From Dehalococcoidia bacterium (lineage in GTDB: Bacteria; Chloroflexota; Dehalococcoidia; Lucifugimonadales; UBA2985): a stretch of DNA of 64,000 nt. This document shows, piece by piece, positions 978 to 64,000 of this stretch (within the stretch, counting starts at the first letter, position 1; every line of letters starts with the position of its first letter). The position numbers were made by a program, and so were the translations under genes. The stretch covers positions 1,929,352 through 1,993,351 of the forward strand of contig OZ244924.1 of NCBI GenBank assembly GCA_965221925.1, read 5' to 3'. The notes under the pieces are model-generated. The model was not told the DNA's origin. It saw nothing but the letters and a program-made list of their open reading frames with translations, and ran no database searches.

Positions 978-2570
978 CTAGAGCGGGGCCGGCATTCCGC
1001 GTTTTATCAGGAAGTACTCCATGCTATCGGCCAGGGCCATCAAACTGGCCTCGATGATGTTGCCTGAGGAGCCAACCGTCTGCCATTGGGTCTGTCCATC
1101 GGTGGACTCTATGAGCACCCTCACCACGGCCCGCGTGTCTTGGCCCTGGTCCACCACGCGCACCTTGTAGTCCAGCAGTCGGACCGCGTCCAACCAGGGA
1201 TAGAATTCCAACAGGGCCTTGCGCAGGGCGTTGTCCAGGGCGTTCACCGGGCCGTTGCCCTCCGCGGCGGTGTGCATCACCCGGGACTCCACCTTCACCT
1301 TGACCACCGCCTCCGCCAGCATATCCTCGTGGACGTCCTCGACGCCGCGGCGTCGGTCCTCCACCAGCGCCATGATCTCCAGCAGCTCAAAGGGAGGCTT
1401 GTAACCTTCAATGGTCCTTCTCACCATCAGCTCGAAGGATGCCGCCGCGCCTTCGTACTGGAAGCCCTTGCTTTCCTGCGCCTTGAGCTTCTCCAGGAGA
1501 GACGTCACCTGCTCCCGGCTCACCTTGTCCGCCAACCCCATCTCATTGAGTCTAAGCAGGATATTCCCCCGCCCGGATAGCTCGGATATCACCACGCGCT
1601 TGGCGTTCCCCACCGTCTCCGGGGCAATGTGCTGGTAGCTCTCCTCAATCTTTGCCACCGCGGCCGCATGGAGTCCCCCCTTGTGGCTGAAGGAGCTGGC
1701 GCCTACGTATGGCTGCTGGCGATTGGGCGGAATGTTCACGGTCTCGCTGACGTAGTTGGACAGATCCGTGAGACTGGCCAGTTGCTCGTCTGTCACGCAC
1801 TGAACGCCCATCTTCGCCTTCAGGTTGGCTATGATGGATAGGAGGTTGGCATTGCCACACCGCTCGCCGTACCCGTTGATCGTCCCCTGCACCTGGGTAA
1901 CGCCCGACATCACCGCGGCCAGGGAGTTTGCCACCGCCATGTCGGCGTCGTTGTGGCAGTGGATACCCAGCGGGGTCTTCACCTCTCGAATCACCCTATG
2001 GATTATGTCGGTCATCTCTATGGTCAGGACGCCGCCGTTGGTGTCGCACAGAACCAGGCAGTCTGCTCCGGCCTCAGCAGCCGCCTTGACGCTCTGAATG
2101 GCGTACTCTGGGTTGGACTTGAATCCATCAAAGAAGTGCTCGGCGTCGTAGAATACAGTGCGCCCACGCTTCTTGAGGAAGGATACGGAGTCCGCAATCA
2201 TAGCCAGGTTCTCCTCCAGGGTGGTCTCCAACACCCTGTGGACGTGGAGGTCTGAACTCTTCCCCACCAGCGTTACGGCCGGGGTTTCCGCGGCCAGAAG
2301 CGCCTGGATGTTGCCATCGTCCTCCACCCGTATGCCGGCGTGGCGAGTGCTCCCGAACGCGGAGATGCGGGCGTTGGAGAGGGAAATGTCTTTGACTCTT
2401 CGGAAGTACTCCACGTCCTTCGGATTGGATCCCGGCCACCCACCCTCAACGTAGTGGATACCCAACTCATCCAGCTTACGAGTAATCTTGATCTTGTCCT
2501 CCGCAGAGAGGGAGATGCCCTCCTGTTGCGCCCCGTCTCTAAGCGTAGTGTCGTATAGCTGTATCTCCAT
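978..2570 (-). CDS. cimA: (R)-citramalate synthase
   Basis: 530-aa ORF starting MEIQLYDTTLRDGAQQEG (DRE-TIM/HMGL-like) with a C-terminal LeuA-dimer-like region. Length fits CimA type. Preceded by a T-box with an Ile (AUC) specifier. Confidence 0.85.
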   Translation of the reverse strand: MEIQLYDTTLRDGAQQEGISLSAEDKIKITRKLDELGIHYVEGGWPGSNPKDVEYFRRVKDISLSNARISAFGSTRHAGIRVEDDGNIQALLAAETPAVTLVGKSSDLHVHRVLETTLEENLAMIADSVSFLKKRGRTVFYDAEHFFDGFKSNPEYAIQSVKAAAEAGADCLVLCDTNGGVLTIEMTDIIHRVIREVKTPLGIHCHNDADMAVANSLAAVMSGVTQVQGTINGYGERCGNANLLSIIANLKAKMGVQCVTDEQLASLTDLSNYVSETVNIPPNRQQPYVGASSFSHKGGLHAAAVAKIEESYQHIAPETVGNAKRVVISELSGRGNILLRLNEMGLADKVSREQVTSLLEKLKAQESKGFQYEGAAASFELMVRRTIEGYKPPFELLEIMALVEDRRRGVEDVHEDMLAEAVVKVKVESRVMHTAAEGNGPVNALDNALRKALLEFYPWLDAVRLLDYKVRVVDQGQDTRAVVRVLIESTDGQTQWQTVGSSGNIIEASLMALADSMEYFLIKRGMPAPL

Positions 2571-2574
2571 TGCT

Positions 2575-2860
2575 CCCCCCTACAAATAAAAAGCCCCGCC
2601 CCACAAGGGACGGGACATAAACTCCCGCGGTACCACCCTTTTTCCCCGATAACCGGGGCGCTCTGTTTTCAGGACACCGTCATGTCCCCGTACTGGTAAC
2701 GGCTACGACCCCGGCCCGGTCTACTGGCCCCGCTCGCGGAGCTTTCGGCGAGCAGCTCAGGAGTGATTTTCCGAAGCGCCCTTCGCGTCTGCTCGCACCA
2801 TTCCAGACTCGCTGGGCGAGGGTATGCTTCGTACTCGTCTCCGTCTTCGCTTTTACAAGC
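2575..2860 (-). promoter_or_regulatory. T-box riboswitch leader, Ile (AUC) specifier
   Basis: Minus strand has stem I with GGAGAC-GAGUA-CGAAGC pairing to GCUUCG-GAAAAUCA-CUCC. AUC (2765-2767) is followed by A next to the lower helix. The conserved T-box sequence AAAAAGGGUGGUACCGCGGGA lies at 2623-2643, followed by the terminator hairpin. Confidence 0.75.
2586..2616 (-). terminator. intrinsic terminator arm of the cimA T-box leader
   Basis: Minus-strand hairpin GUCCCGUCCC-UUGU-GGGGCGGGGC (two G-U pairs) followed by UUUUUAUUU, just upstream of the cimA ATG. Confidence 0.7.
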
Positions 2861-4422: not shown

Positions 4423-6954
4423 CTAGCTGAGCTTGGCCTTGCGCAGTCGCAGCGAGTTGGTGACCACGGAGACGGAGCTAAGCGCCATCGCGCCCGCGGC
4501 CATGACCGGATTGAGGAATCCGTAGTCTCCCAGGATGTACCGCAGAGGGCCGTCCGGAACGCCGGTGTTGAGGACTTCAAAGAACAGCACAAAGAAAAGG
4601 CCTGCGGCGACGGGTATCAGGACAGTGTTGTAGCCAAATGCCCAGAACAGGTTCTGCCATATAGTCCTGGTGGTGGCTTTGGACAGGGCGATGGCTTGTG
4701 GCACACCTCGCAGGTCGCCGCGCATGAGAGTGACATCGGCAGACGCGATGGCTACGTCGGTACCGGTGCCCAGGGCAATCCCGACATCTGCCCTGGTCAG
4801 GGCCGGGGCGTCGTTGATGCCGTCGCCCACCATAGCCACGGTCTTGCCCTCCTCCTGAAGCGAGCGTATCTTGTCGGCCTTCTGGTCCGGTAGCACCTCG
4901 GCAATAACCCGGTCAATGCCCACCTGCCCGGCTATGGCTCCGGCGGTGCGCCGGTCGTCGCCGGTGAGCATAATGACCTCCAGCCCCAGCTTGTGCATCG
5001 CCTCCACCGCCTCGCGGGACTCCGGCCTCAGCGTGTCTGCCACGGCGATGACCCCGGCCGCTTTGCCATCCATTGCTGCGAATATGGGCGTCTTGCCCTG
5101 CTCCGAAAGCTCACGACCCATGTCTTCCAGGCCGTCCAGGGGGACGCCCAGCTCCTTCATCAGGGCAGGGTTTCCCAGTACGACCGTGGAGCCGTTGACC
5201 TGGGCCTGGACGCCATGGCCCGGAAGGGCCTGGAACAGGGCGGCGTCTTCCAATGTTAACTCTCTTTCCGCGGCCGCCTCCACCAGCGCCTTGCCCAGAG
5301 GGTGCTCGGAGCCGCGCTCGGCGGACGCCGCCAGCCGGAGCAACTCCTTCTCCGGCAGATGAAGCGATACAACGTCCGTCACCACTGGCTTTCCCAGGGT
5401 TAGGGTGCCGGTCTTGTCCAATACCACAGTCTGAAGCCTGTATGCCCGCTCAAGCGCCTCCGCATTGCGTATCAGGATGCCGCGCTCTGCGCCCTTGCCC
5501 ATGCCCACGACTATGGCGGTTGGCGTTGCCAGGCCAAGGGCGCAGGGACATGCGATAACCAGCACAGCAACGAGGTTTAGAATGGCAATGGGGACCACCG
5601 GCGAGACCGGGGCCCAGATTATCCATCCCACAAAGGTGACCAGGGCTATACCCAGGACCGCAGGCACGAAGCGGGCGGCTACCCTGTCCACCAGGCGCTG
5701 TATTGGCGCCTGCGACCCCTGGGCTTCCTGTACCAGCTGGATGATGTTGGCTAAGGCGGTGTCCTTGCCAATTCTGGTAGCCCTGAACCGGAAGCTGCCT
5801 ACCTTGTTGATGGTTGCGCCGTAAACGGTGGAGCCGGCGCTCTTCTCCACCGGCAGGCTCTCTCCGGTGAGCATCGACTCATCGACTGCCGATTCGCCAT
5901 CGGTCACCTCGCCGTCAACGGCTATCCTCTCGCCGGGACGCACTACCAGGATGTCGCCAAGAGCGACCTCATCAATGGGCACGTCGGTTTCCACGCCGTC
6001 CCTCACTACGGTGGCGGTCTTTGGCTGGAGGACCATGAGTTTGCGGATGGCCTCGGACGTCTGCCCCTTGGCGCGGGCCTCAAGCAGCCGCCCCAGCAGC
6101 ACAAGGCAGATGACGATGGTGGATGCGTCGAAGTAGGTACCGGCGCTGTGGCTGAGCGCGCTGTTGGCGTGGACCAGATGCGCGTCGGCGAAGTATCCTT
6201 CGAAGAAGGTAAGGAAGGCACTGTAGCCGTACGCCACGCTGGTCCCAATGGCGATGAGGGTGTTCATGTTGGAGGTGCGGCGCTTCAGGGCGCCCCAGGC
6301 GCTCCGGTAAAAGGTCGCTCCAATCCAGAACTGCACCGGCGTCGCCAGCGTCCAGAGTATGAGGTTGAGTTGGAATGAAGTCAGGCCCAGGGTCTCAAGG
6401 GGGATGTACATGGTGACCATCATCACAGCGCCGACCACGCCGGCAATGATGACCTTGCGAGCCAGCGCCCTGACCTCACGGGTGCGGGCCAGGCGCTCCT
6501 CGCCCTCTTCGGCTCCCTCGTCGTCGACGCCCTCGACCGTGTAGCCCGCATCGTCCACCATCGCCTTCATGTCGGGCAGGGAGGCCTGCCCGGGGATGTA
6601 CTCGACCGTTGCCTGCTCCGTAGCCAGGTTGACGCTGGCCGATATGACGCCGTCCACCTCCCTGAGGGCGTTGCCAACGTGGGAGACGCAGGCGGCGCAG
6701 GTCATTCCGCCGATGTTCAGGGTGACGCGAGACACGCCGGCCTTGTACCCGGCGTCGTCCACAGCTTCCAGCAGCTCCGGGATGGTGGCCCGCTCCGGGT
6801 CGAACTCCACGGTGGCCTGCTCCATTGCCAGATTGACCTCTGCGGAGGTTACGCCGTCCACCTCTCGAAGGGCGTTGCCCACGTGGGAGACGCAGGCGGC
6901 GCAGGTCATTCCCGCTACGGGCAGGGTGATGCTTTTGAGGTCTTTGATGGTCAT
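4423..6954 (-). CDS. copA: copper-translocating P1B-type ATPase
   Basis: 843 aa with two N-terminal HMA domains (GMTCAACV twice), TGES, a CPC transmembrane motif ([11 protein letters not shown]), DKTGT and GDGINDAP. Confidence 0.92.
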
Positions 6955-14311: not shown

Positions 14312-14533
14312 CGTTTCTCAGTCCTCCTAAGGTCTTTTCTGGGTCGCTATGCTGACCAGTGGTGATCGGCGCCCAGAACCCCGGCAGGACCTTCCGAGCG
14401 GTGCATTGACATTCTAGAGGTGCCAGAATGCTGTCTCGGCGGATTCTACCATTGAATACCCCCTGGGTCAATAGAGGACGGCCGAGGGTCCAGGGTCTTT
14501 CGATTATGGCAAGAAGAGTGATAGAGTTGGCGT

Positions 14534-14977
14534 ATGAATATGGAGGGACTGGGAAAGAGCCTACTTGGAGTACTGGAGGGGGTGCCTGATCCCCGGTCCA
14601 GGCATGGTCGTCGCCATGCGCTGAGTGCAATCTTGGCGTTATCGGTGTGTGCAATAGCAAGTGGCGCCCGTAGTCTATATGCCATAGCCCAATGGGGAAG
14701 GATGCAAGACCCGGCTACACTGAAGGAGTTGGGGTTCACCAGAGAGCGGACCCCTGCGATATCCACGTTGCATAAGGTGTTCAGCAGTATAGACATGGAT
14801 GCGTTCGAGAGTGTGCTTGGGGAATGGGTTGAATCTCAGTTGGGAACAAGAGAGGAGGCAATAGCAATAGATGGCAAGGCGCTTAGGGGGATACACGGGG
14901 AGGAGGCGCCTGGAGTCCGTCTTGTGGCTGCCTATAGCCATCGCATGGGCTTGGTGGTGAGTCAAAAAGGGGGGTGA
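14534..14977 (+). CDS. ISAs1-family transposase, N-terminal part (orfA)
   Basis: 147 aa. VPDPRSRHGRRHALSAILALSVCAIASGARSLYAIAQWG matches the H-repeat/DDE_Tnp_1-associated N-domain. Ends at A5G6-TGA. Confidence 0.85.
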   Translation: MNMEGLGKSLLGVLEGVPDPRSRHGRRHALSAILALSVCAIASGARSLYAIAQWGRMQDPATLKELGFTRERTPAISTLHKVFSSIDMDAFESVLGEWVESQLGTREEAIAIDGKALRGIHGEEAPGVRLVAAYSHRMGLVVSQKGG

Positions 14978-15657
14978 CGGCTGAGAAGAATCAGTCGGAG
15001 TTGGCTATGGCAAGCTCGCTGTTGGAGAGAATGATCGTAACAGACAGGGTAGTGACCGGGGATGCGCTGTACTGCCAGAGACAGCTGTGTGAACAGGTGG
15101 TTGGTGGAGGTGGCGACTATCTGTTGATAGTCAAGAGCAACCAGAAGAGGCTGTACGAGGACATAGAGTTGTGCTTCGACCGGCCTGTGGTTGGTGAGAC
15201 GTATGGATATGCCGAGACCGAGGACAGTCATGGAGAGCGTCGAGAGTATCGCAGGTTGTGGGCTACAGACACACTGAAGACCTATCTGGAGTGGCCCGGA
15301 CACGGGCAGGTGATGAAGGTTGAGAGTTGGCGCAGCATCAAAGGCAAGACCACTCGGCAGGTGCGATACGCTATCACCAGCCTTGGGACTCACACACCGG
15401 CTGATAGACTGCTCCAACTGGTACGCGGCCATTGGCGCATTGAGAATGGCCTGCACTATGTGAGGGACGTGACCATGGGGGAGGATGGCTCCCAAGTTCG
15501 CACCGGCTCAGCGCCACAGATGATGGCAGCCCTGAGAAACGTGGCGCTGAATATCCTCCGACTGAGCGGAGCTACCAACATCGCAGCAGCCATAAGGAAC
15601 GTCGCTTGGCAGCCCAACGGCGCTCTCAGATTGCTAGGCCTACTACCATCACAATAA
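14974..15657 (+). CDS. ISAs1-family transposase, DDE part (orfB, -1 frame)
   Basis: 227 aa. GGDYLLIVKSNQKRL ... HWRIENGLHYVRDVTMGEDGS is typical of ISAs1 DDE transposases. Lies in the -1 frame relative to orfA. Confidence 0.85.
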   Translation: MTAEKNQSELAMASSLLERMIVTDRVVTGDALYCQRQLCEQVVGGGGDYLLIVKSNQKRLYEDIELCFDRPVVGETYGYAETEDSHGERREYRRLWATDTLKTYLEWPGHGQVMKVESWRSIKGKTTRQVRYAITSLGTHTPADRLLQLVRGHWRIENGLHYVRDVTMGEDGSQVRTGSAPQMMAALRNVALNILRLSGATNIAAAIRNVAWQPNGALRLLGLLPSQ

Positions 15658-15737
15658 TCGAAAGACCCTGGCCGAGGGTCTGGGTTTTTTCCTTTTGCCG
15701 CAACATGCGCCGGGCACGCCGGCGGGAGTTAGCTCCG

Positions 15738-28543: not shown

Positions 28544-28771
28544 CTAGCCGATGTAGCAGCCCCTACGCCCCCCGAATCTCCGCTCCACCCGTCCATCGGG
28601 GTATACGATGATGGGCACCGCATCGCCCAGCCCTCTGGCCTCGTCCAGCGCCCTCTGGCTCAGGTCGGCCCGGCGCTCCTCGTAGCTGACTCCCTCCGCG
28701 TCCCACTGCTCAATGAGCCTTGCGCACGCCGGGCAGCCCCTTATGGTATAGACAATGGGAAGTGAGGCCAT
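28544..28771 (-). CDS. glutaredoxin-like protein
   Basis: 75 aa. IVYTIRGCPACARL (CPxC in thioredoxin-fold context). Confidence 0.6.
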   Translation of the reverse strand: MASLPIVYTIRGCPACARLIEQWDAEGVSYEERRADLSQRALDEARGLGDAVPIIVYPDGRVERRFGGRRGCYIG

Positions 28772-28877
28772 ATTCTCTCAACTCCAATGGGCTATGTGGA
28801 TGATACATGCTCGCGTATCTCCTGCCAATAGGTGATCGAAGGGCATTCTCAGCGCGTGCTGGTAATGGCGCGCGATA

Positions 28878-29740
28878 CTGCTCGTATGGTTCGACAAGCT
28901 CACCACGAACGGACGTGGGGACACCACGAACGGACGTGGGGACACCACGAACGGACGTGGGGACACTACGAACGGACGTGGGGACACCACGAACGGACAT
29001 GGGGACACCACGAACGGACGTGGGGACACCACGAACGGACGTGGGGACACCACGAACGGACGTGGGGACACCACGAACGGGAGGGGAAACGCGGGTTTGC
29101 CCCCGTATCAAGTACAGGGCAGGCTCAGAGCCTGCCCTACCCCTCCGTTCGTCCTGAGCCTGTCGAAGGAGCACGAACGAAACGTGGCAGGCCCCTGCCT
29201 TCCCGCTCATATGGTTCGACAAGCTCACCACGAACGGGCGGGGGGACACTACGAACGGGCGGGGGGACACTACGAACGGGCGGGGGGATACCACGAACGG
29301 GCGGGGGGACACCACGAACGGACGTGGGGACACCACGAACGGACGTGGGGACACCACGAACGGACGTGGGGACACTACGAACGGGCGGGGGGACACCACG
29401 AACGGATGTGGGGACACCACGAACGGGCGGGGAACCGCGGGCTTGCCCCCGTATCAAGTACAGGGCAGGCTCTGAGCGGGCCCTACCCTTCCGTTCGTCC
29501 TGAGCCTGTCGAAGGAGCACGAACGAAACGTGGGCGGGCCCCTGCCTGCCCGCTCATATGGTTCGACAAGCTCACCACGAACTGACGTGGGGACACCACG
29601 AACTGACGTGGGGACACCACGAACGGACGTGGGGACACCACGAACGGGCGTGAGGACACCACGAACGGGCGTGAGGACACCACGAACGGGCGTGAGGACA
29701 CCACGAACGGACGTGAGGACACCACGAACGGGCGGGGGGC
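28878..29740 (+). repeat. tandem array R1: three blocks of 21-bp units (8+9+7) separated by about 125-bp linkers
   Basis: Each block starts with the core CCGCTCATATGGTTCGACAAGCTCACCACGAAC, followed by GGACGTGGGGACACCACGAAC-type units. Linkers contain GCCCCCGTATCAAGTACAGGGCAGGC and CGTCCTGAGCCTGTCGAAGGAGCACGAACG. Confidence 0.95.
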
Positions 29741-34177: not shown

Positions 34178-34540
34178 TTCCCGTTCATAACCTGCCCCGT
34201 ACTTGATACGGGGGTAACCCGCGGTCCCCCGTCCGTTCGTGGTGTCCTCATGTCCGTTCGTGGTGTCCTCATGTCCGTTCGTGGTGTCCCCACGTCCGTT
34301 CGTGGTGTCCCCACGTCCGTTCGTGGTGTCCCCACGTCCGTTCGTGGTGTCCTCATGTCCGTTCGTGGTGTCCTCATGTCCGTTCGTGGTGTCCCCCGTC
34401 CGTTCGTGGTGTCCTCATGTCCGTTCGTGGTGTCCTCATGTCCGTTCGTGGTGTCCTCATGTCCGTTCGTGGTGTCCCCCCGCCCGTTCGTGGTGTCCCC
34501 CCGCCCGTTCGTGGTGAGCTTGTCGAACCAAATGAGCGGG
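34178..34540 (-). repeat. tandem array R2: 13 units of 21 bp (one of 20 bp), inverted relative to R1
   Basis: Plus strand reads linker fragment (rc of the R1 linker), then 13 x GTTCGTGGTGTCC(TCATGTCC/CCACGTCC), then GTTCGTGGTGAGCTTGTCGAACCAAATGAGCGGG (rc of the core). Confidence 0.95.
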
Positions 34541-48092: not shown

Positions 48093-48618
48093 CTTGACAC
48101 CATCCAAACAATCCAGGGTAATGCTCGTAGACGATCATGAGATAATGCGGGACGGACTTCGAGAAGTCCTCGAGCGCTCCGGCAACTTCGAAGTGGTGGG
48201 CCAAGCCGGCGATGGCGTTGCAGCCGTCAACATCGCTCTGAAGTTAAAACCGGACGTAATTGTCATGGATGTGATGATGCCCTTGAAGAATGGTATCGAC
48301 GCGTGTAGAGAGATAACGGAAATGCTCCCGGACACGAAGACGCTGATTCTGACGGCTTCCGCGGAGGAGGATGCCGTGATGGAAGCGGTGGCCGCGGGCG
48401 CAACCGGCTTCCTTCAGAAATACTCCGGCAAGGAGAAACTCCTCGCTACGGTCCGGGAGGTTGCTGACGGCGAGTACCGAATACCGAGCAACGTCTTGCG
48501 AAGCGTGTTCGCGGGAATCCGGGGAACGGCTGAACAGAAGACGACCGACGGTCCCAAGTCGCTCACACAACGGGACAGGGTCTTTCGATTATGGCAAGAA
48601 GAGTGATAGAGTTGGCGT

Positions 48619-49062
48619 ATGAATACGGAGGGACTGGGAAAGAGCCTACTTGGAGTACTGGAGGGGGTGCCTGATCCCCGGTCCAGGCATGGTCGTCGCC
48701 ATGCGCTGAGTGCAATCTTGGCGTTATCGGTGTGTGCAATAGCAAGTGGCGCCCGTAGTCTATATGCCATAGCCCAATGGGGAAGGATGCAAGACCCGGC
48801 TACACTGAAGGAGTTGGGGTTCACCAGAGAGCGGACCCCTGCGATATCCACGTTGCATAAGGTGTTCAGCAGTATAGACGTGGATGTGTTCGAGAGTGTG
48901 CTTGGGGAATGGGTTGAATCTCAGTTGGGAACAAGAGAGGAGGCAATAGCAATAGATGGCAAGGCGCTTAGGGGGATACACGGGGAGGAGGCGCCTGGAG
49001 TCCGTCTTGTGGCTGCCTATAGCCATCGCATGGGCTTGGTGGTGAGTCAAAAAGGGGGGTGA
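48619..49062 (+). CDS. ISAs1-family transposase orfA (copy B)
   Basis: 147 aa, 2 aa different from copy A. Ends at the same A5G6-TGA (49049-49062). Confidence 0.85.
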   Translation: MNTEGLGKSLLGVLEGVPDPRSRHGRRHALSAILALSVCAIASGARSLYAIAQWGRMQDPATLKELGFTRERTPAISTLHKVFSSIDVDVFESVLGEWVESQLGTREEAIAIDGKALRGIHGEEAPGVRLVAAYSHRMGLVVSQKGG

Positions 49063-49742
49063 CGGCTGAGAAGCATCAGTCGGAGTTGGCTATGGCAAGC
49101 TCGCTGTTGGAGAGAATGATCGTAACAGACAGGGTAGTGACCGGGGATGCGCTGTACTGCCAGAGACAGCTGTGTGAACAGGTGGTTGGTGGAGGTGGCG
49201 ACTATCTGTTGATAGTCAAGAGCAACCAGAAGAGGCTGTACGAGGACATAGAGTTGTGCTTCGACCGGCCTGTGGTTGGTGAGACGTATGGATATGCCGA
49301 GACCGAGGACAGTCATGGAGAGCGTCGAGAGTATCGCAGGTTGTGGGCTACAGACACACTGAAGACCTATCTGGAGTGGCCCGGACACGGGCAGGTGATG
49401 AAGGTTGAGAGTTGGCGCAGCATCAAAGGCAAGACCACTCGGCAGGTGCGATACGCTATCACCAGCCTTGGGACTCACACACCGGCTGATAGACTGCTCC
49501 AACTGGTACGCGGCCATTGGCGCATTGAGAATGGCCTGCACTATGTGAGGGACGTGACCATGGGGGAGGATGGCTCCCAAGTTCGCACCGGCTCAGCGCC
49601 ACAGATGATGGCAGCCCTGAGAAACGTGGCGCTGAATATCCTCCGACTGAGCGGAGCTACCAACATCGCAGCAGCCATAAGGAACGTCGCTTGGCAGCCC
49701 AACGGCGCTCTCAGATTGCTAGGCCTACTACCATCACAATAA
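49059..49742 (+). CDS. ISAs1-family transposase orfB (copy B, -1 frame)
   Basis: 227 aa, 1 aa different from copy A. Confidence 0.85.
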   Translation: MTAEKHQSELAMASSLLERMIVTDRVVTGDALYCQRQLCEQVVGGGGDYLLIVKSNQKRLYEDIELCFDRPVVGETYGYAETEDSHGERREYRRLWATDTLKTYLEWPGHGQVMKVESWRSIKGKTTRQVRYAITSLGTHTPADRLLQLVRGHWRIENGLHYVRDVTMGEDGSQVRTGSAPQMMAALRNVALNILRLSGATNIAAAIRNVAWQPNGALRLLGLLPSQ

Positions 49743-50053
49743 TCGAAAGACCCTGACAACGGGACAGGGAGATCTTGACACTCTTCGCCCAAGGCCTTTC
49801 CTACGCGGAGATAGCAGAGGCGAGGAATAACCAGCCGTTGACTATTAGAAACGCGATATACAGCATTCAGGACAAGCTCGGTATTGATACCAAGCAGGAG
49901 CTTGTGGTGTGGGCGGTCCGTAACGGCCTCTTGGATGACTTCCAGATCGGAAGATGACCTCTGCCGTACGCGAATTTAGTCTTGGATTGCGGCTCAGTCG
50001 GTGCAGTAGCCCGCGTCGCTTAGCGATCGGCAGTGGTATCGAACGCTCGGTTG

Positions 50054-50148
50054 CCGCTCATGCTGAACTTGTCGAACCACATGAGCGGGACGCTGGGGAA
50101 GCCCACCCCCCTTTTGCTCACGCCCTTCGACTCGCTCAGGATGAGCGG
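50054..50148 (-). repeat. solitary copy of the array modules (partial core plus M2 hairpin)
   Basis: CCGCTCATG...CTTGTCGAACCACATGAGCGGG, then ...GCTCACGCCCTTCGACTCGCTCAGGATGAGCGG, matching the core-plus-tail unit of array R3. Followed by two GGAACCCAA.CACCCCTGGGTTCC hairpins. Confidence 0.75.
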
Positions 50149-53493: not shown

Positions 53494-54261
53494 ACCATTC
53501 GTGGTGAGCCAAGCTCCCTTGTCCGTTCATGGTGAGCCAAGCTCCCTTGTCCGTTCATGGTGAGCCAAGCTCCCCTGCCCGTTCGTGGTAAACCGAGCTC
53601 CCCTGCCCGTTCGTGGTAAACCGAGCTCCCCTGCCCGTTCGTGGTGAGCTTGTCGAACCACATGAGCGGGACACTGGAGAAGCCGACCCAGTTCCGCTCA
53701 CGCCCTTCGACTTCGCTCAGGATGAGCGGAATGTCCCTGCCCATTAGTGGTAAACTTGTCGAACCACATGAGCGGGACACTGGAGAAGCCGACCCAGTTC
53801 CGCTCACGCCCTTCGACTTCGCTCAGGATGAGCGGAATGTCCTTGTCCGTTCATGGTGAGCCGATCTCCCCTGCCCGTTCGTGGTGAGCTTGTCGAACCA
53901 CATGAGCGGGACACTGGAGAAGCCGACCCAGTTCCGCTCACGCCCTTCGACTTCGCTCAGGATGAGCGGAATGTCCTTATCCGTTCATGGTGAGCCGAGC
54001 TCCCCTGCCCGTTCGTGGTGAGCCGAGCTCCCCTGCCCGTTCGTGGTGAGCCGAGCTCCCCTGCCCGTTCGTGGTGAGCTTGTCGAACCACAAGAGCGGG
54101 ACACTGGAGAAGCCGACCCAGTTCCGCTCACGCCCTTCGACTTCGCTCAGGATGAGCGGAATGTCCTTGTCCGTTCGTGGTGAGCCGATCTCCCCTGCCC
54201 GTTCGTGGTGAGCCGAGCTCCCCTGCCCGTTCGTGGTGAGCTTGTCGAACCACATGAGCGG
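53494..54261 (-). repeat. tandem array R3: 28-bp units interleaved with five core modules and four 66-bp M2 tails
   Basis: Plus strand reads blocks of CCGTTC(G/A)TGGTGAGCC(G/A)AGCTCCCCTGC (period 28), then GTTCGTGGTGAGCTTGTCGAACCACATGAGCGGG, then ACACTGGAGAAGCCGACCCAGTTCCGCTCACGCCCTTCGACTTCGCTCAGGATGAGCGGAATGTCC, repeated. Confidence 0.95.
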
Positions 54262-62298: not shown

Positions 62299-62416
62299 TG
62301 CGTTCCTCGACGCGCAAGCCCGGGCGCGTCCACGCCGCCTGGCGGTCCTGCCCCAGGCCACAAACCGCGGGAAGCCTCCGCCTCAAGACGGTAAACGACG
62401 GCGAGGGAATCGTCCC

Positions 62417-62671
62417 ATGAGTGAGTTCAGGTTCGCCATAGGACAGAGGGTGAAGGTAAAGGAGGGGAGCTTTCCGCTCAACAACCCGGACGGCTACCAC
62501 CTCATAGGGCAGACTGGCGCCATAGAGCGTTGCTGGGACCCGCGTCACGGCAAGGGCGACGAGCACACCGTACGCTCCGAACACATCCAGTACTTTGAGA
62601 TCAAGCAGTACGACGTACGCGTAGGCGACAGGCTGTACTCCCTCAACGAGGACTGGCTGGAAGAAGAGTAG
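62417..62671 (+). CDS. hypothetical protein
   Basis: 84-aa ORF. No family recognised. Confidence 0.4.
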   Translation: MSEFRFAIGQRVKVKEGSFPLNNPDGYHLIGQTGAIERCWDPRHGKGDEHTVRSEHIQYFEIKQYDVRVGDRLYSLNEDWLEEE

Positions 62672-62693
62672 AGCCGTTTCCCCGGCCACCGCT

Positions 62694-63709
62694 CGCAATT
62701 CATCCGCTCATCCTGAGCTTGTCGAAGGGCGTGAGCGGGCGCAATTCATCCGCTCATCCTGAGCCTGTCGAAGGACATGAGTGGGCGCAATTCATCCGCT
62801 CATCCTGAGCCTGTCGAAGGACATGAGTGGGCGCAATTCATCCGCTCATCCTGAGCCTGTCGAAGGGCGTGAGCGGGCGCAATTCATCCGCTCATCCTGA
62901 GCCTGTCGAAGGACATGAGTGGGCGCAATTCATCCGCTCATCCTGAGCCTGTCGAAGGGCGTGAGCGGGCGCAATTCATCCGCTCATCCTGAGCCTGTCG
63001 AAGGACGTGAGCGGGCGCAATTCATCCGCTCATCCTGAGCCTGTCGAAGGGCGTGAGCGGGCGCAATTCATCCGCTCATCCTGAGCCTGTCGAAGGGCGT
63101 GAGCGGGCGCAATTCATCCGCTCATCCTGAGCCTGTCGAAGGGCGTGAGCGGGCGCAATTCATCCGCTCATCCTGAACCTGTCGAAGGGCGTGAGCGGGC
63201 GCAATTCATCCGCTCATCCTGAGCCTGTCGAAGGGCGTGAGCGGGCGCAATTCATCCGCTCATCCTGAGCCTGTCGAAGGGCGTGAGCGGGCGCAATTCA
63301 TCCGCTCATCCTGAGCCTGTCGAAGGGCGTGAGCGGGCGCAATTCATCCGCTCATCCTGAACCTGTCGAAGGGCGTGAGCGGGCGCAATTCATCCGCTCA
63401 TCCTGAGCCTGTCGAAGGGCGTGAGCGGGCGCAATTCATCCGCTCATCCTGAACCTGTCGAAGGGCGTGAGCGGGCGCAATTCATCCGCTCATCCTGAGC
63501 CTGTCGAAGGGCGTGAGCGGGCGCAATTCATCCGCTCATCCTGAGCCTGTCGAAGGGCGTGAGCGGGCGCAATTCATCCGCTCATCCTGAACCTGTCGAA
63601 GGACATGAACGGAACGGGAAATCATCCGCTCATCCTGAGCCTGTCGAAGGACATGAACGGAACGGGAAATCACCCGCTCGTATGATTCGACAAGCTCACC
63701 ACGAACGGG
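62694..63709 (+). repeat. tandem array R4: 20 units of 46 bp, two variant units and a terminal core module
   Basis: Unit CGCAATTCATCCGCTCATCCTGAGCCTGTCGAAGGGCGTGAGCGGG with exact 46-bp period from 62694 to 63568. Ends with CCCGCTCGTATGATTCGACAAGCTCACCACGAACGGG. Confidence 0.97.
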
Positions 63710-63734
63710 AGGGAGCGCCCCCTCGCCCAACCCC

Positions 63735-63763
63735 TTGACGCTGGCTCGCCGCCCGCGTATCAT
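63735..63763 (+). promoter_or_regulatory. candidate promoter of the downstream radical-SAM gene
   Basis: TTGACG (63735-63740), 17 nt, then TATCAT (63758-63763). Followed by the 20-bp imperfect palindrome TAGACTGACCAGTCGGTCTA (63764-63783). Confidence 0.45.
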
Positions 63764-63830
63764 TAGACTGACCAGTCGGTCTACAGCCGGACGCCAGCGC
63801 CGGCAGCCACAAGAAAGGGACCAAAAAGCT

Positions 63831-64000
63831 ATGACTACTACCACGGTTGTTTCACCGTCCATAAGGTTCAGGGACGCGTCCCTAGAGCCAATCTGGGAGA
63901 AGGTGCAAGCAGGCCGGAGGCTTGACTTTGAGGACGGGCTGAACTGCCTTCGCACGTCGGACCTGGTCTCCCTGGGGCAGATGGCCGATTTCGCCAAGCG
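63831..64000 (+). CDS. radical SAM enzyme of the futalosine/CofH family (MqnE/MqnC-like), 5' fragment
   Basis: ATG after AAGAAAGGGA. N-terminus ...LEPIWEKVQAGRRLDFEDGLNCLRTSDLVSLGQMADFAKR resembles the Mqn/CofH N-terminus. Truncated by the window end. Confidence 0.5.
   Translation, partial: MTTTTVVSPSIRFRDASLEPIWEKVQAGRRLDFEDGLNCLRTSDLVSLGQMADFAK

Follow-up and report, generated by a model that had tools for sequence, protein, structure and literature searches.

The 64-kb window analysed here (64,000 nucleotides of contig OZ244924.1 from a Dehalococcoidia bacterium; "the window" denotes this whole stretch throughout) contains near its end an array, R4, made of about 1 kb of 46-bp hairpin units, and the question raised by this locus is what kind of element so long and regular an array represents. 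In the initial annotation it was held to resemble an iteron or centromere-like array, or a concatenated-hairpin RNA, rather than dispersed repetitive extragenic palindromes (REPs). This comparison did not survive the analysis: the unit is dispersed, its number varies between strains, and it is found as a single copy at the same site in a relative (L122). R4 is read here, with a probability of about 0.65, as the product of a recent, unstable amplification in tandem that started from one copy of a dispersed REP-like hairpin. The array is composed as follows.

62694..63613, plus strand: twenty 46-bp units, head-to-tail, with starts spaced 46 bp from 62694 to 63568
each 46-bp unit: a 10-nt spacer, CGCAATTCAT, followed by a 36-nt hairpin, CCGCTCATCCT-GAGCCTGTCGA-AGGGCGTGAGCGG(G)
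63614..63660, plus strand: unit 21, out of register, at a 48-bp step, with spacer ACGGGAAATCAT and its hairpin at 63626-63660
63672..63709, minus strand: an inverted 'core' hairpin, whose minus strand reads CCCGTTCGTGGT-GAGCTTGTCGA-ATCATACGAGCGGGT
63626..63709, minus strand: a REPIN-like inverted doublet (last unit plus core), which folds as a single long hairpin

The twenty exact-period units starting at 62694, proposed from the sequence in the initial annotation, were borne out by the register listing and by Tandem Repeats Finder, which reports at 62694-63650 a period of 46, 20.8 copies, 96% matches and no indels (score 1749); the structural reading given there, of hairpin units with a 10-nt spacer and a terminal core, was upheld as well. 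The consensus CGCAATTCATCCGCTCATCCTGAGCCTGTCGAAGGGCGTGAGCGGG is matched exactly by 11 of the 20 in-register units. Variants are represented by GGACATGAGTGGG (three units), GAACC (three), GAGCT (one) and GGACG (one); the 3' arm of the 20th unit is degenerate, and the 10-nt spacer is identical across all 20. The three polymorphic sites noticed in the initial annotation correspond to five variable nucleotides; the terminal core is on the strand opposite to the units, and the last unit is set at a 48-bp step behind a different spacer.

Unit and core share the loop and differ in the arms, which nevertheless still pair (CCT...AGG versus GGT...ACC). At 63626-63709 the last unit and the core together provide what is typical of REPINs, an inverted doublet that can fold back into one extended hairpin: for the minus strand of 63614-63720 the folding energy is -49.7 kcal/mol (z = -5.2), which none of 200 shuffles equalled. 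Isolated units fold modestly (z from -0.6 to -2.6), and they are taken as hairpins because of the stem covariation found across taxa, not because of single-unit folding energies.

In the window the loop motif, GAGCYTGTCGAA, is found 28 times, where 0.03 occurrences would be expected. Its distribution was evaluated by scanning one genome per species, for 185,579 species, for two loops located 20-50 nt apart; at least 120 loci were detected, versus an estimated 0.5 or so expected by chance. The taxa among the matches listed include Actinomycetota, Chloroflexota, Alpha-, Beta- and Gammaproteobacteria, Bacteroidota and Cyanobacteria, along with Myxococcota, Planctomycetota, Eremiobacterota, Binatia, Saccharibacteria and Treponema. 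The signature of the family is an invariant 11-nt loop, GAGCYTGTCGA, which a U-A/T-A pair (T-GAGCYTGTCGA-A) and a covarying stem of 3-4 bp close. In 492 loops for which both flanks are readable, a T precedes the loop in 96% of the cases, and the three positions before this T form pairs with the three following the loop, using a wide variety of sequences. When 148 distinct hairpins were compared, 86% of the cells turned out to be paired, versus 62% in shuffles, and the covariation score was 0.605, compared with 0.181 in shuffles and no more than 0.19 when the partners were slid. A loop which is asymmetric and invariant, between arms which are free to change but still pair, points to a folded single strand rather than to a protein site on duplex DNA.

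A covariance model, R1, built on these 148 hairpins, all from other genomes, assigns 23-35 bits to the R4 units. In the window it produces 32 strong matches, 22 within R4 and 10 in three other intergenic loci, as well as two weak matches in a fifth intergenic region. The R4 unit is therefore a member of a dispersed hairpin family, and R4 is not a separate kind of element. The abundance of extragenic imperfect palindromes which characterizes REPs is found here, since all 32 window matches are intergenic and, among the matches listed for the 120 loci, 465 of 498 loops fall outside predicted genes.

Spacers containing loops are convergent rather than divergent in a ratio of 31:13, against a background of 90:82, and in co-directional spacers the loop is sense in 103 cases and antisense in 80. 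The lack of a strand bias argues against a strand-specific RNA signal and fits a REP-like element acting as DNA, or solely by being a hairpin; the folded single strand would be what is selected, and on orientation grounds DNA is more likely than RNA. Arrays of at least three copies, with periods between 14 and 71 bp, were found 55 times among the 120 loci listed, R4 being the largest, followed by arrays of 16 x 23 bp and 10 x 42 bp. The family is thus mostly intergenic, with a preference for gene 3' ends and no fixed orientation, and it readily forms short-period arrays. It appears to be undescribed: a full-text search of the literature, run on the sequence, on the peptides it encodes and on the topic, returned no paper describing the hairpin. 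Scanning the window against Rfam 15 at the gathering score returned a T-box and two tRNAs alone, and at a permissive threshold the 62400-64000 region returned chance matches to miRNA and sRNA families (E >= 0.76).

The history of the locus was reconstructed from syntenic sites in relatives, retrieved via the upstream 84-aa open reading frame (ORF), orf84. In L121, an independent assembly of a 99.1%-identical strain, the same array is found at the corresponding position and comprises 19 units, with the variants arranged differently. In L122, where the orf84 product is 90% identical and the ribF-tyrS-orf84 string, the mqn genes and the promoter between them are the same, the site contains a single unit preceded by the same 10-nt flank (CGCAAATCAT), then a second hairpin, an AT-rich ORF and the inverted core. 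The latter is kept at the same position in L121 and L122; unit 21 of R4 is related to the second hairpin of L122 and is not present in L121. In relatives at 64-76% identity there is no array and the downstream gene is different. Array length, whose comparison among related genomes had been proposed in the initial annotation, therefore goes from 21 units in the window to 19 in L121, one in L122 and none further away; the absence or variability in close relatives, named there among the marks of a neutral satellite, is what was observed.

These data indicate that R4 is hypervariable between strains and that a single copy is the ancestral state. Since the single unit of L122 has the same flank, the 46-bp unit corresponds to 10 nt of unique 5' flank plus the hairpin, duplicated locally, and the 48-bp last step implies several independent duplication events. 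The compound array at 53.5-54.2 kb of the window also varies, its anchors being 395 bp apart in L121 and 592 bp in the window. At the DAHP-synthase/MarR spacer L122 and the window are unalignable at this divergence, and no clean empty site was found there.

R4 is, in its behaviour, a minisatellite: a lineage-specific amplification of a 46-bp segment, of the variable-number tandem repeat (VNTR) type. Like bacterial VNTR and MIRU sequences, it has tandem units of 40-50 bp within an operon spacer, a growth that is local and not due to transposition, and a copy number which varies between strains. MIRUs are not known to be conserved-loop hairpins, are restricted to lineages and often carry small overlapping ORFs; unlike them, the R4 unit belongs to a family spanning many bacterial phyla. 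Gains and losses of units in arrays of this kind may come from slippage during replication, from template switching or from unequal exchange among the hairpin units. R4 itself is probably a neutral or selfish expansion; it would have no dedicated function, acting at most as an incidental stack of hairpins in the 3' untranslated region (UTR) behind orf84, which would separate the orf84 operon from the mqn promoter.

The remaining members of the family in the window are located at four sites.

28882..29731, unstranded: three inverted cores, each followed by a half-hairpin array with a 21-bp period (CACCACGAACGGACGTGGGGA), with two plus-strand hairpins between
34231..34535, plus strand: a 21-bp half-hairpin array of 13.7 copies, ending in a full core hairpin
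50057..50145, unstranded: a weak inverted pair of family-like hairpins (16.9 and 12.5 bits), 5' of a tRNA gene
53498..54257, plus strand: a compound array with periods of 28, 106, 134 and 190 bp, the one whose length differs in L121

The compound array is a mosaic of core hairpins, half-hairpins and an inverted variant hairpin with loop GAGCGAAGTCGA. Further inverted hairpin pairs are found at 29156/29215, 29502/29562 and 50057/50118. The arrays at 28901-29731 and 34231-34516 contain only the 5' half of the core plus a 9-nt filler, and both are directly adjacent to a complete core hairpin; the break falls within the conserved loop, between GGTG and AGC, which hints at a defined point of cutting or slippage. 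In the source runs, words of unit 1 are roughly 60-100 times as deep as the flanks, which makes it probable that tens of additional copies of the hairpin exist in the genome. R4 and its sister arrays also yield spurious ORFs of 153-236 aa (28710-29420, minus strand; 28832-29503, plus strand; 63536-63997, minus strand), whose peptides repeat PFVVSPR..., HHERTWG... and LRQAQDER and are likely to be annotated as hypothetical proteins.

The family shares with REP, BIME, REPIN and REPtron elements the nature of short imperfect palindromes present in many copies, mostly intergenic and near gene 3' ends, and with REPs and REPINs the occurrence in both orientations, the inverted doublets, the mosaic clusters and the rapid turnover between strains. 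It differs from REPs in that the loop is invariant and the stem variable, in the occurrence of long, constant-period head-to-tail arrays, including those of half-hairpins, and in the 5' flank, where a GTAG-type tetranucleotide was not found, the flanks being of the CCGYTC[RA] type and the conserved block being the loop. Unlike species-specific REPs, moreover, its loop is common to many phyla.

A possible partner of the hairpins emerged when the ORFs of the 120 listed loci were clustered to find recurring neighbours. The resulting clusters are mostly generic (ABC transporters, response regulators, acetyl-CoA synthetase), and no obvious transposase family recurred, most clusters having been judged by eye. 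The notable exception, beside an HNH-DUF222 gene in three loci, is a gene of about 90-110 aa, found in four of the 120 loci, in different phyla, and bracketed by hairpins. Its product is a bare GIY-YIG domain (Pfam PF01541) and belongs to the UPF0213 family, matching PDB entries 1zg2 and 1ywl (structural-genomics proteins BH0048 and EF2693). UPF0213 proteins form the 'standalone Slx1-like' prokaryotic group in a 2006 phylogenomic study of GIY-YIG nucleases (PMC1564403), where flanking repeats are not mentioned.

The association was also evaluated in the reverse direction, on 80 metagenome loci chosen by their protein relative alone. The strict 12-nt loop is located within 400 bp of the gene in 26 of the 80, with a density of 1.25/kb near the gene and 0.059/kb further out (about 21-fold). 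The nearest downstream hairpin has the '-' orientation in 21 of 22 loci, and in 20 of these it reaches into the end of the protein match or is no more than 47 bp away; hairpins within 100 bp upstream of the gene mostly have the '+' orientation. Exact inverted matches of at least 14 nt between the two flanks were found in 39 of 67 loci, versus 5 of 67 in a control with mismatched flanks, and almost all of them are hairpin arms. With a looser pattern, consisting of a 3-bp stem, T-GAG[C/G], 0-45 nt, N-TCGA-A and the complementary stem, a hairpin is found within 400 bp of the gene in 64 of the 80 loci, at densities of 3.1/kb near and 0.13/kb far (about 24-fold), versus 0.0035/kb in shuffles. The subtypes observed beside GIY-YIG genes include those of the window.

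Some related hairpins are more elaborate: at L127 5300-5345 and in the GIY-YIG flanks of L137, L162 and L174 an extra inner hairpin is inserted between GAG[C/G] and TCGAA, and the one in L174 is itself a GAGCTTGTCGAA hairpin, which makes the structure nested. The shared GAG[C/G]/TCGAA junction could form tandem sheared G.A pairs. In L134, L140 and L174 the hairpin-flanked GIY-YIG gene occupies one conserved chromosomal position, between what we take, by eye, to be an NrdR-like gene upstream and a SPOUT/TrmH-like methyltransferase gene downstream. In Erythrobacter the nuclease is reported to be fused to a TrmH-like methyltransferase (PMC1564403).

The layout, judged from sequence, is that of a REPtron: a small nuclease gene bracketed by inverted repeats, in which, however, a GIY-YIG nuclease (UPF0213/Slx1-like) apparently replaces the HUH Y1 transposase. 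The catalytic domain is also that of eukaryotic Slx1 and of free-standing homing endonucleases such as the T4 Seg proteins, and by analogy a selfish spread by break and repair may be supposed. Slx1 is a structure-selective nuclease, cutting branched and stem-loop DNA. Unlike homing endonucleases (PMC1564403), the candidate partner protein, at about 90-110 aa, is essentially a bare GIY-YIG domain devoid of DNA-binding modules. We tentatively propose, at clearly less than even odds, that GIY-YIG nucleases of the UPF0213 family use these hairpins as targets and are what drives both their spread and their arrays. If so, the invariant-loop hairpins, together with the wider T-GAG[C/G]...TCGA-A superfamily, might be the cognate substrates of these nucleases, a suggestion to be taken just as cautiously. 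The Slx1-like nuclease would recognise or nick the extruded hairpin, and repair of the break would drive the spread of the hairpins, in a REPtron- or homing-like manner, as well as the instability of the arrays. Nuclease and hairpin would then constitute a new REPtron-like selfish system extending across phyla, in which repair copies both the hairpins and the nuclease gene, and head-to-tail arrays such as R4 would be by-products.

Several points weigh against this interpretation. No GIY-YIG homologue was detected by tblastn in the 64-kb window or in the loci L121-L132 of its relatives, which mostly span about 10-20 kb. Since the query proteins were those found beside hairpins, the association holds for one subfamily only. 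Hairpin clusters could be insertion hot spots, the nuclease gene being a passenger; such clusters also enclose an HNH-DUF222 gene (in L001) and the AT-rich ORF of L122. As for the family itself, the orientation counts were derived from crude gene calls, in which ORFs were chosen by third-codon-position GC, and array frequencies are inflated because the loci were chosen for tandem loop pairs. Finally, at least the 5' edge of R4 is transcribed, which leaves some probability to an RNA-level role.

The two genes enclosed in hairpin clusters may be described further. In L001 (Microbacterium mangrovi, 4451-6610) the HNH-DUF222 gene, REP13E12-like, extends from 4785 to 6416 and has arrays of the same hairpin on both sides, with periods of 54 and 71 bp; this family recurs in L061 and L097, for a total of three Actinomycetota loci. 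The ORF of L122, of 209 aa, is located between hairpins at the site syntenic to R4 (5430-6059, minus strand); it has no Pfam match and is unlike anything at the R4 site of the window, and it suggests that hairpin clusters take up foreign genes. In viral contigs the loop pair was found in 42 places, with no GIY-YIG gene beside it, and there is thus no evidence of phages carrying the system.

Among the alternatives to the amplification of a dispersed hairpin, the one which fares best, though unlikely, is that R4 is a functional concatenated-hairpin RNA, constituting the 3' UTR of ribF-tyrS-orf84 and kept for its role, which would be either to shield the mRNA from 3'-5' exonucleases or to insulate, or terminate before, the mqn promoter. 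The features to be considered here are those flanking the array.

62417..62671, plus strand: orf84, a conserved 84-aa ORF directly 5' of R4 and last in the ribF-tyrS-orf84 string
63735..63763, plus strand: a sigma-70-like promoter candidate, TTGACG-17-TATCAT, for the menaquinone (mqn) genes downstream, outside R4, matching at 10 of 12 positions
63764..63783, unstranded: an imperfect palindrome, TAGACTGACCAGTCGGTCTA, directly 3' of the -10 hexamer of the candidate mqn promoter
63831..64000, plus strand: start of a radical-SAM gene (CofH/MqnE-like), from the gene calls and Pfam families of L121

A role in mRNA stabilisation or in termination-like processes is known for E. coli REP elements, and the R4 units read in the same direction as the genes on either side. 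In transcripts of three units, folding is somewhat more stable than in shuffled sequences for the plus strand (z = -2.0), with no such difference for the minus strand. In sponge metatranscriptomes, a 96-99% identical relative is represented by contigs that give low-depth coverage of tyrS and extend from orf84 into unit 1 of R4; no RNA contigs were found on the mqn side. The excess of hairpin words over the flanks is, however, similar in DNA (roughly 60-100-fold) and in RNA (about 20-120-fold, highest bin), which indicates at most read-through into R4 and no dedicated RNA; since the RNA contigs have no direction and the words are not clearly over-represented, these data do not decide between RNA and DNA. 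No terminator-like site or T-tract is present within 62300-64000, the loop shows no strand preference across genomes (the 103 versus 80 reported above), and the number of units differs between 99%-identical strains. Lastly, L122 keeps the genes and the promoter but lacks the array.

The promoter candidate for the downstream gene, already pointed out in the initial annotation, was found again and is kept in both L121 and L122, the latter devoid of the array. The same holds for the palindrome TAGACTGACCAGTCGGTCTA, which looks like a putative repressor operator, as judged from its sequence and position. The orf84 product gave no match in a Pfam search. In L121 a VitK2_biosynth gene and a second CofH-like gene lie 3' of the radical-SAM gene.

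It is less probable still that the hairpin is a classical REP/REPIN moved by a REP-associated tyrosine transposase (RAYT, an IS200/IS605-like Y1 HUH enzyme) encoded elsewhere, the GIY-YIG link being incidental. HUH enzymes are a known class recognising single-stranded DNA hairpins, and intergenic imperfect palindromes forming inverted doublets and clusters are what such an origin would produce. Nevertheless the GTAG-type tetranucleotide is missing, conservation concerns the loop and not the stem, and one loop is found in many phyla, unlike in species-specific REPs. It was also the GIY-YIG gene, and no obvious transposase family, that recurred among the 120 listed loci, and the hairpins beside GIY-YIG genes have a fixed position and orientation.

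A protein-binding DNA array, whether iteron, centromere (parC/parS-like) or titration site, is very improbable. At least 20 near-identical units in a regular head-to-tail array would suit it, and short, near-identical head-to-tail units are also found in ToxI, iterons and parC. Unlike these, R4 lies next to no ToxN, Rep or Par gene, is lacking in relatives and is composed of a unit dispersed elsewhere. Neither a GIY-YIG nuclease nor a Rep, Par or ToxN-like gene was found near the array, and rep, par or other DNA-binding partner genes do not flank it, in agreement with the initial annotation, which had seen no partner protein nearby; the site is a chromosomal housekeeping region, syntenic in relatives lacking the array, the copy number is unstable, and the conserved asymmetric loop with covarying arms points to a folded single strand.

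Other candidates were examined and rejected individually. For an iteron array, which would lie beside a rep gene, an AT-rich unwinding element and DnaA boxes, the neighbours are ribF, tyrS, orf84 and mqn instead of rep, and the GC content is about 0.62 throughout; for a partition centromere, par genes are lacking and covariation indicates a folded single strand. A type III toxin-antitoxin system was discarded because there is no terminator and because what follows, instead of a ToxN/AbiQ-type endoribonuclease gene, is a CofH-like radical-SAM gene served by a promoter of its own, and a CRISPR array because the spacer is constant in all 20 units and not unique. Readings of the loop as hammerhead-like, kink-turn, attC or dif/Xer, or as boxA, ANTAR, T-loop or an rRNA/tRNA-complementarity element, were set aside as the required core nucleotides or architecture appear to be absent.

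The weakest alternative, that R4 is an assembly artefact due to a collapsed or inflated repeat, is very improbable: short-read (Logan) contigs of the source runs stop at both edges, as expected for 1 kb of near-identical 46-mers, and in run X1 the array-internal depth ratio is about half of the expected value, but the copy number is supported by a second, independent assembly (19 units against 21, with the variants in another arrangement) and by short-read k-mer depth, an array-internal 76-nt unitig in run X2 having 12.6 times the flank depth, versus 13.1 expected from the window sequence, and run X3 giving 14.7.

Two further features of the window are unrelated to the hairpins. An element of about 1180 bp is present in two 99.7%-identical copies (14491-15670 and 48576-49755), each with ORFs of 147 and 227 aa; it is an insertion sequence, the 227-aa product resembling an IS4/ISAs1-type transposase. 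The T-box leader detected by Rfam (2603-2856, minus strand) is full-length and scores 110 bits, above the gathering score; it lies 5' of a 530-aa ORF (978-2570, minus strand), presumably coding for an aminoacyl-tRNA synthetase or related product.

In practice, R4 provides a hypervariable marker and represents a trap for assembly and, because of the long spurious ORFs it generates, for gene calling. More interesting than the array is the family to which it belongs, in which a 12-nt sequence is conserved from Actinomycetota to Bacteroidota within a hairpin with a covarying stem. The UPF0213/Slx1-like GIY-YIG nucleases are tied to these hairpins. Should the link be causal, they would be the second class of nucleases, after the RAYT HUH transposases, to maintain REP-like repeats; the hairpins would offer a testable substrate, and a function, for a large family of 'unknown function', and the widespread intergenic arrays which pollute gene prediction in many phyla would be explained.

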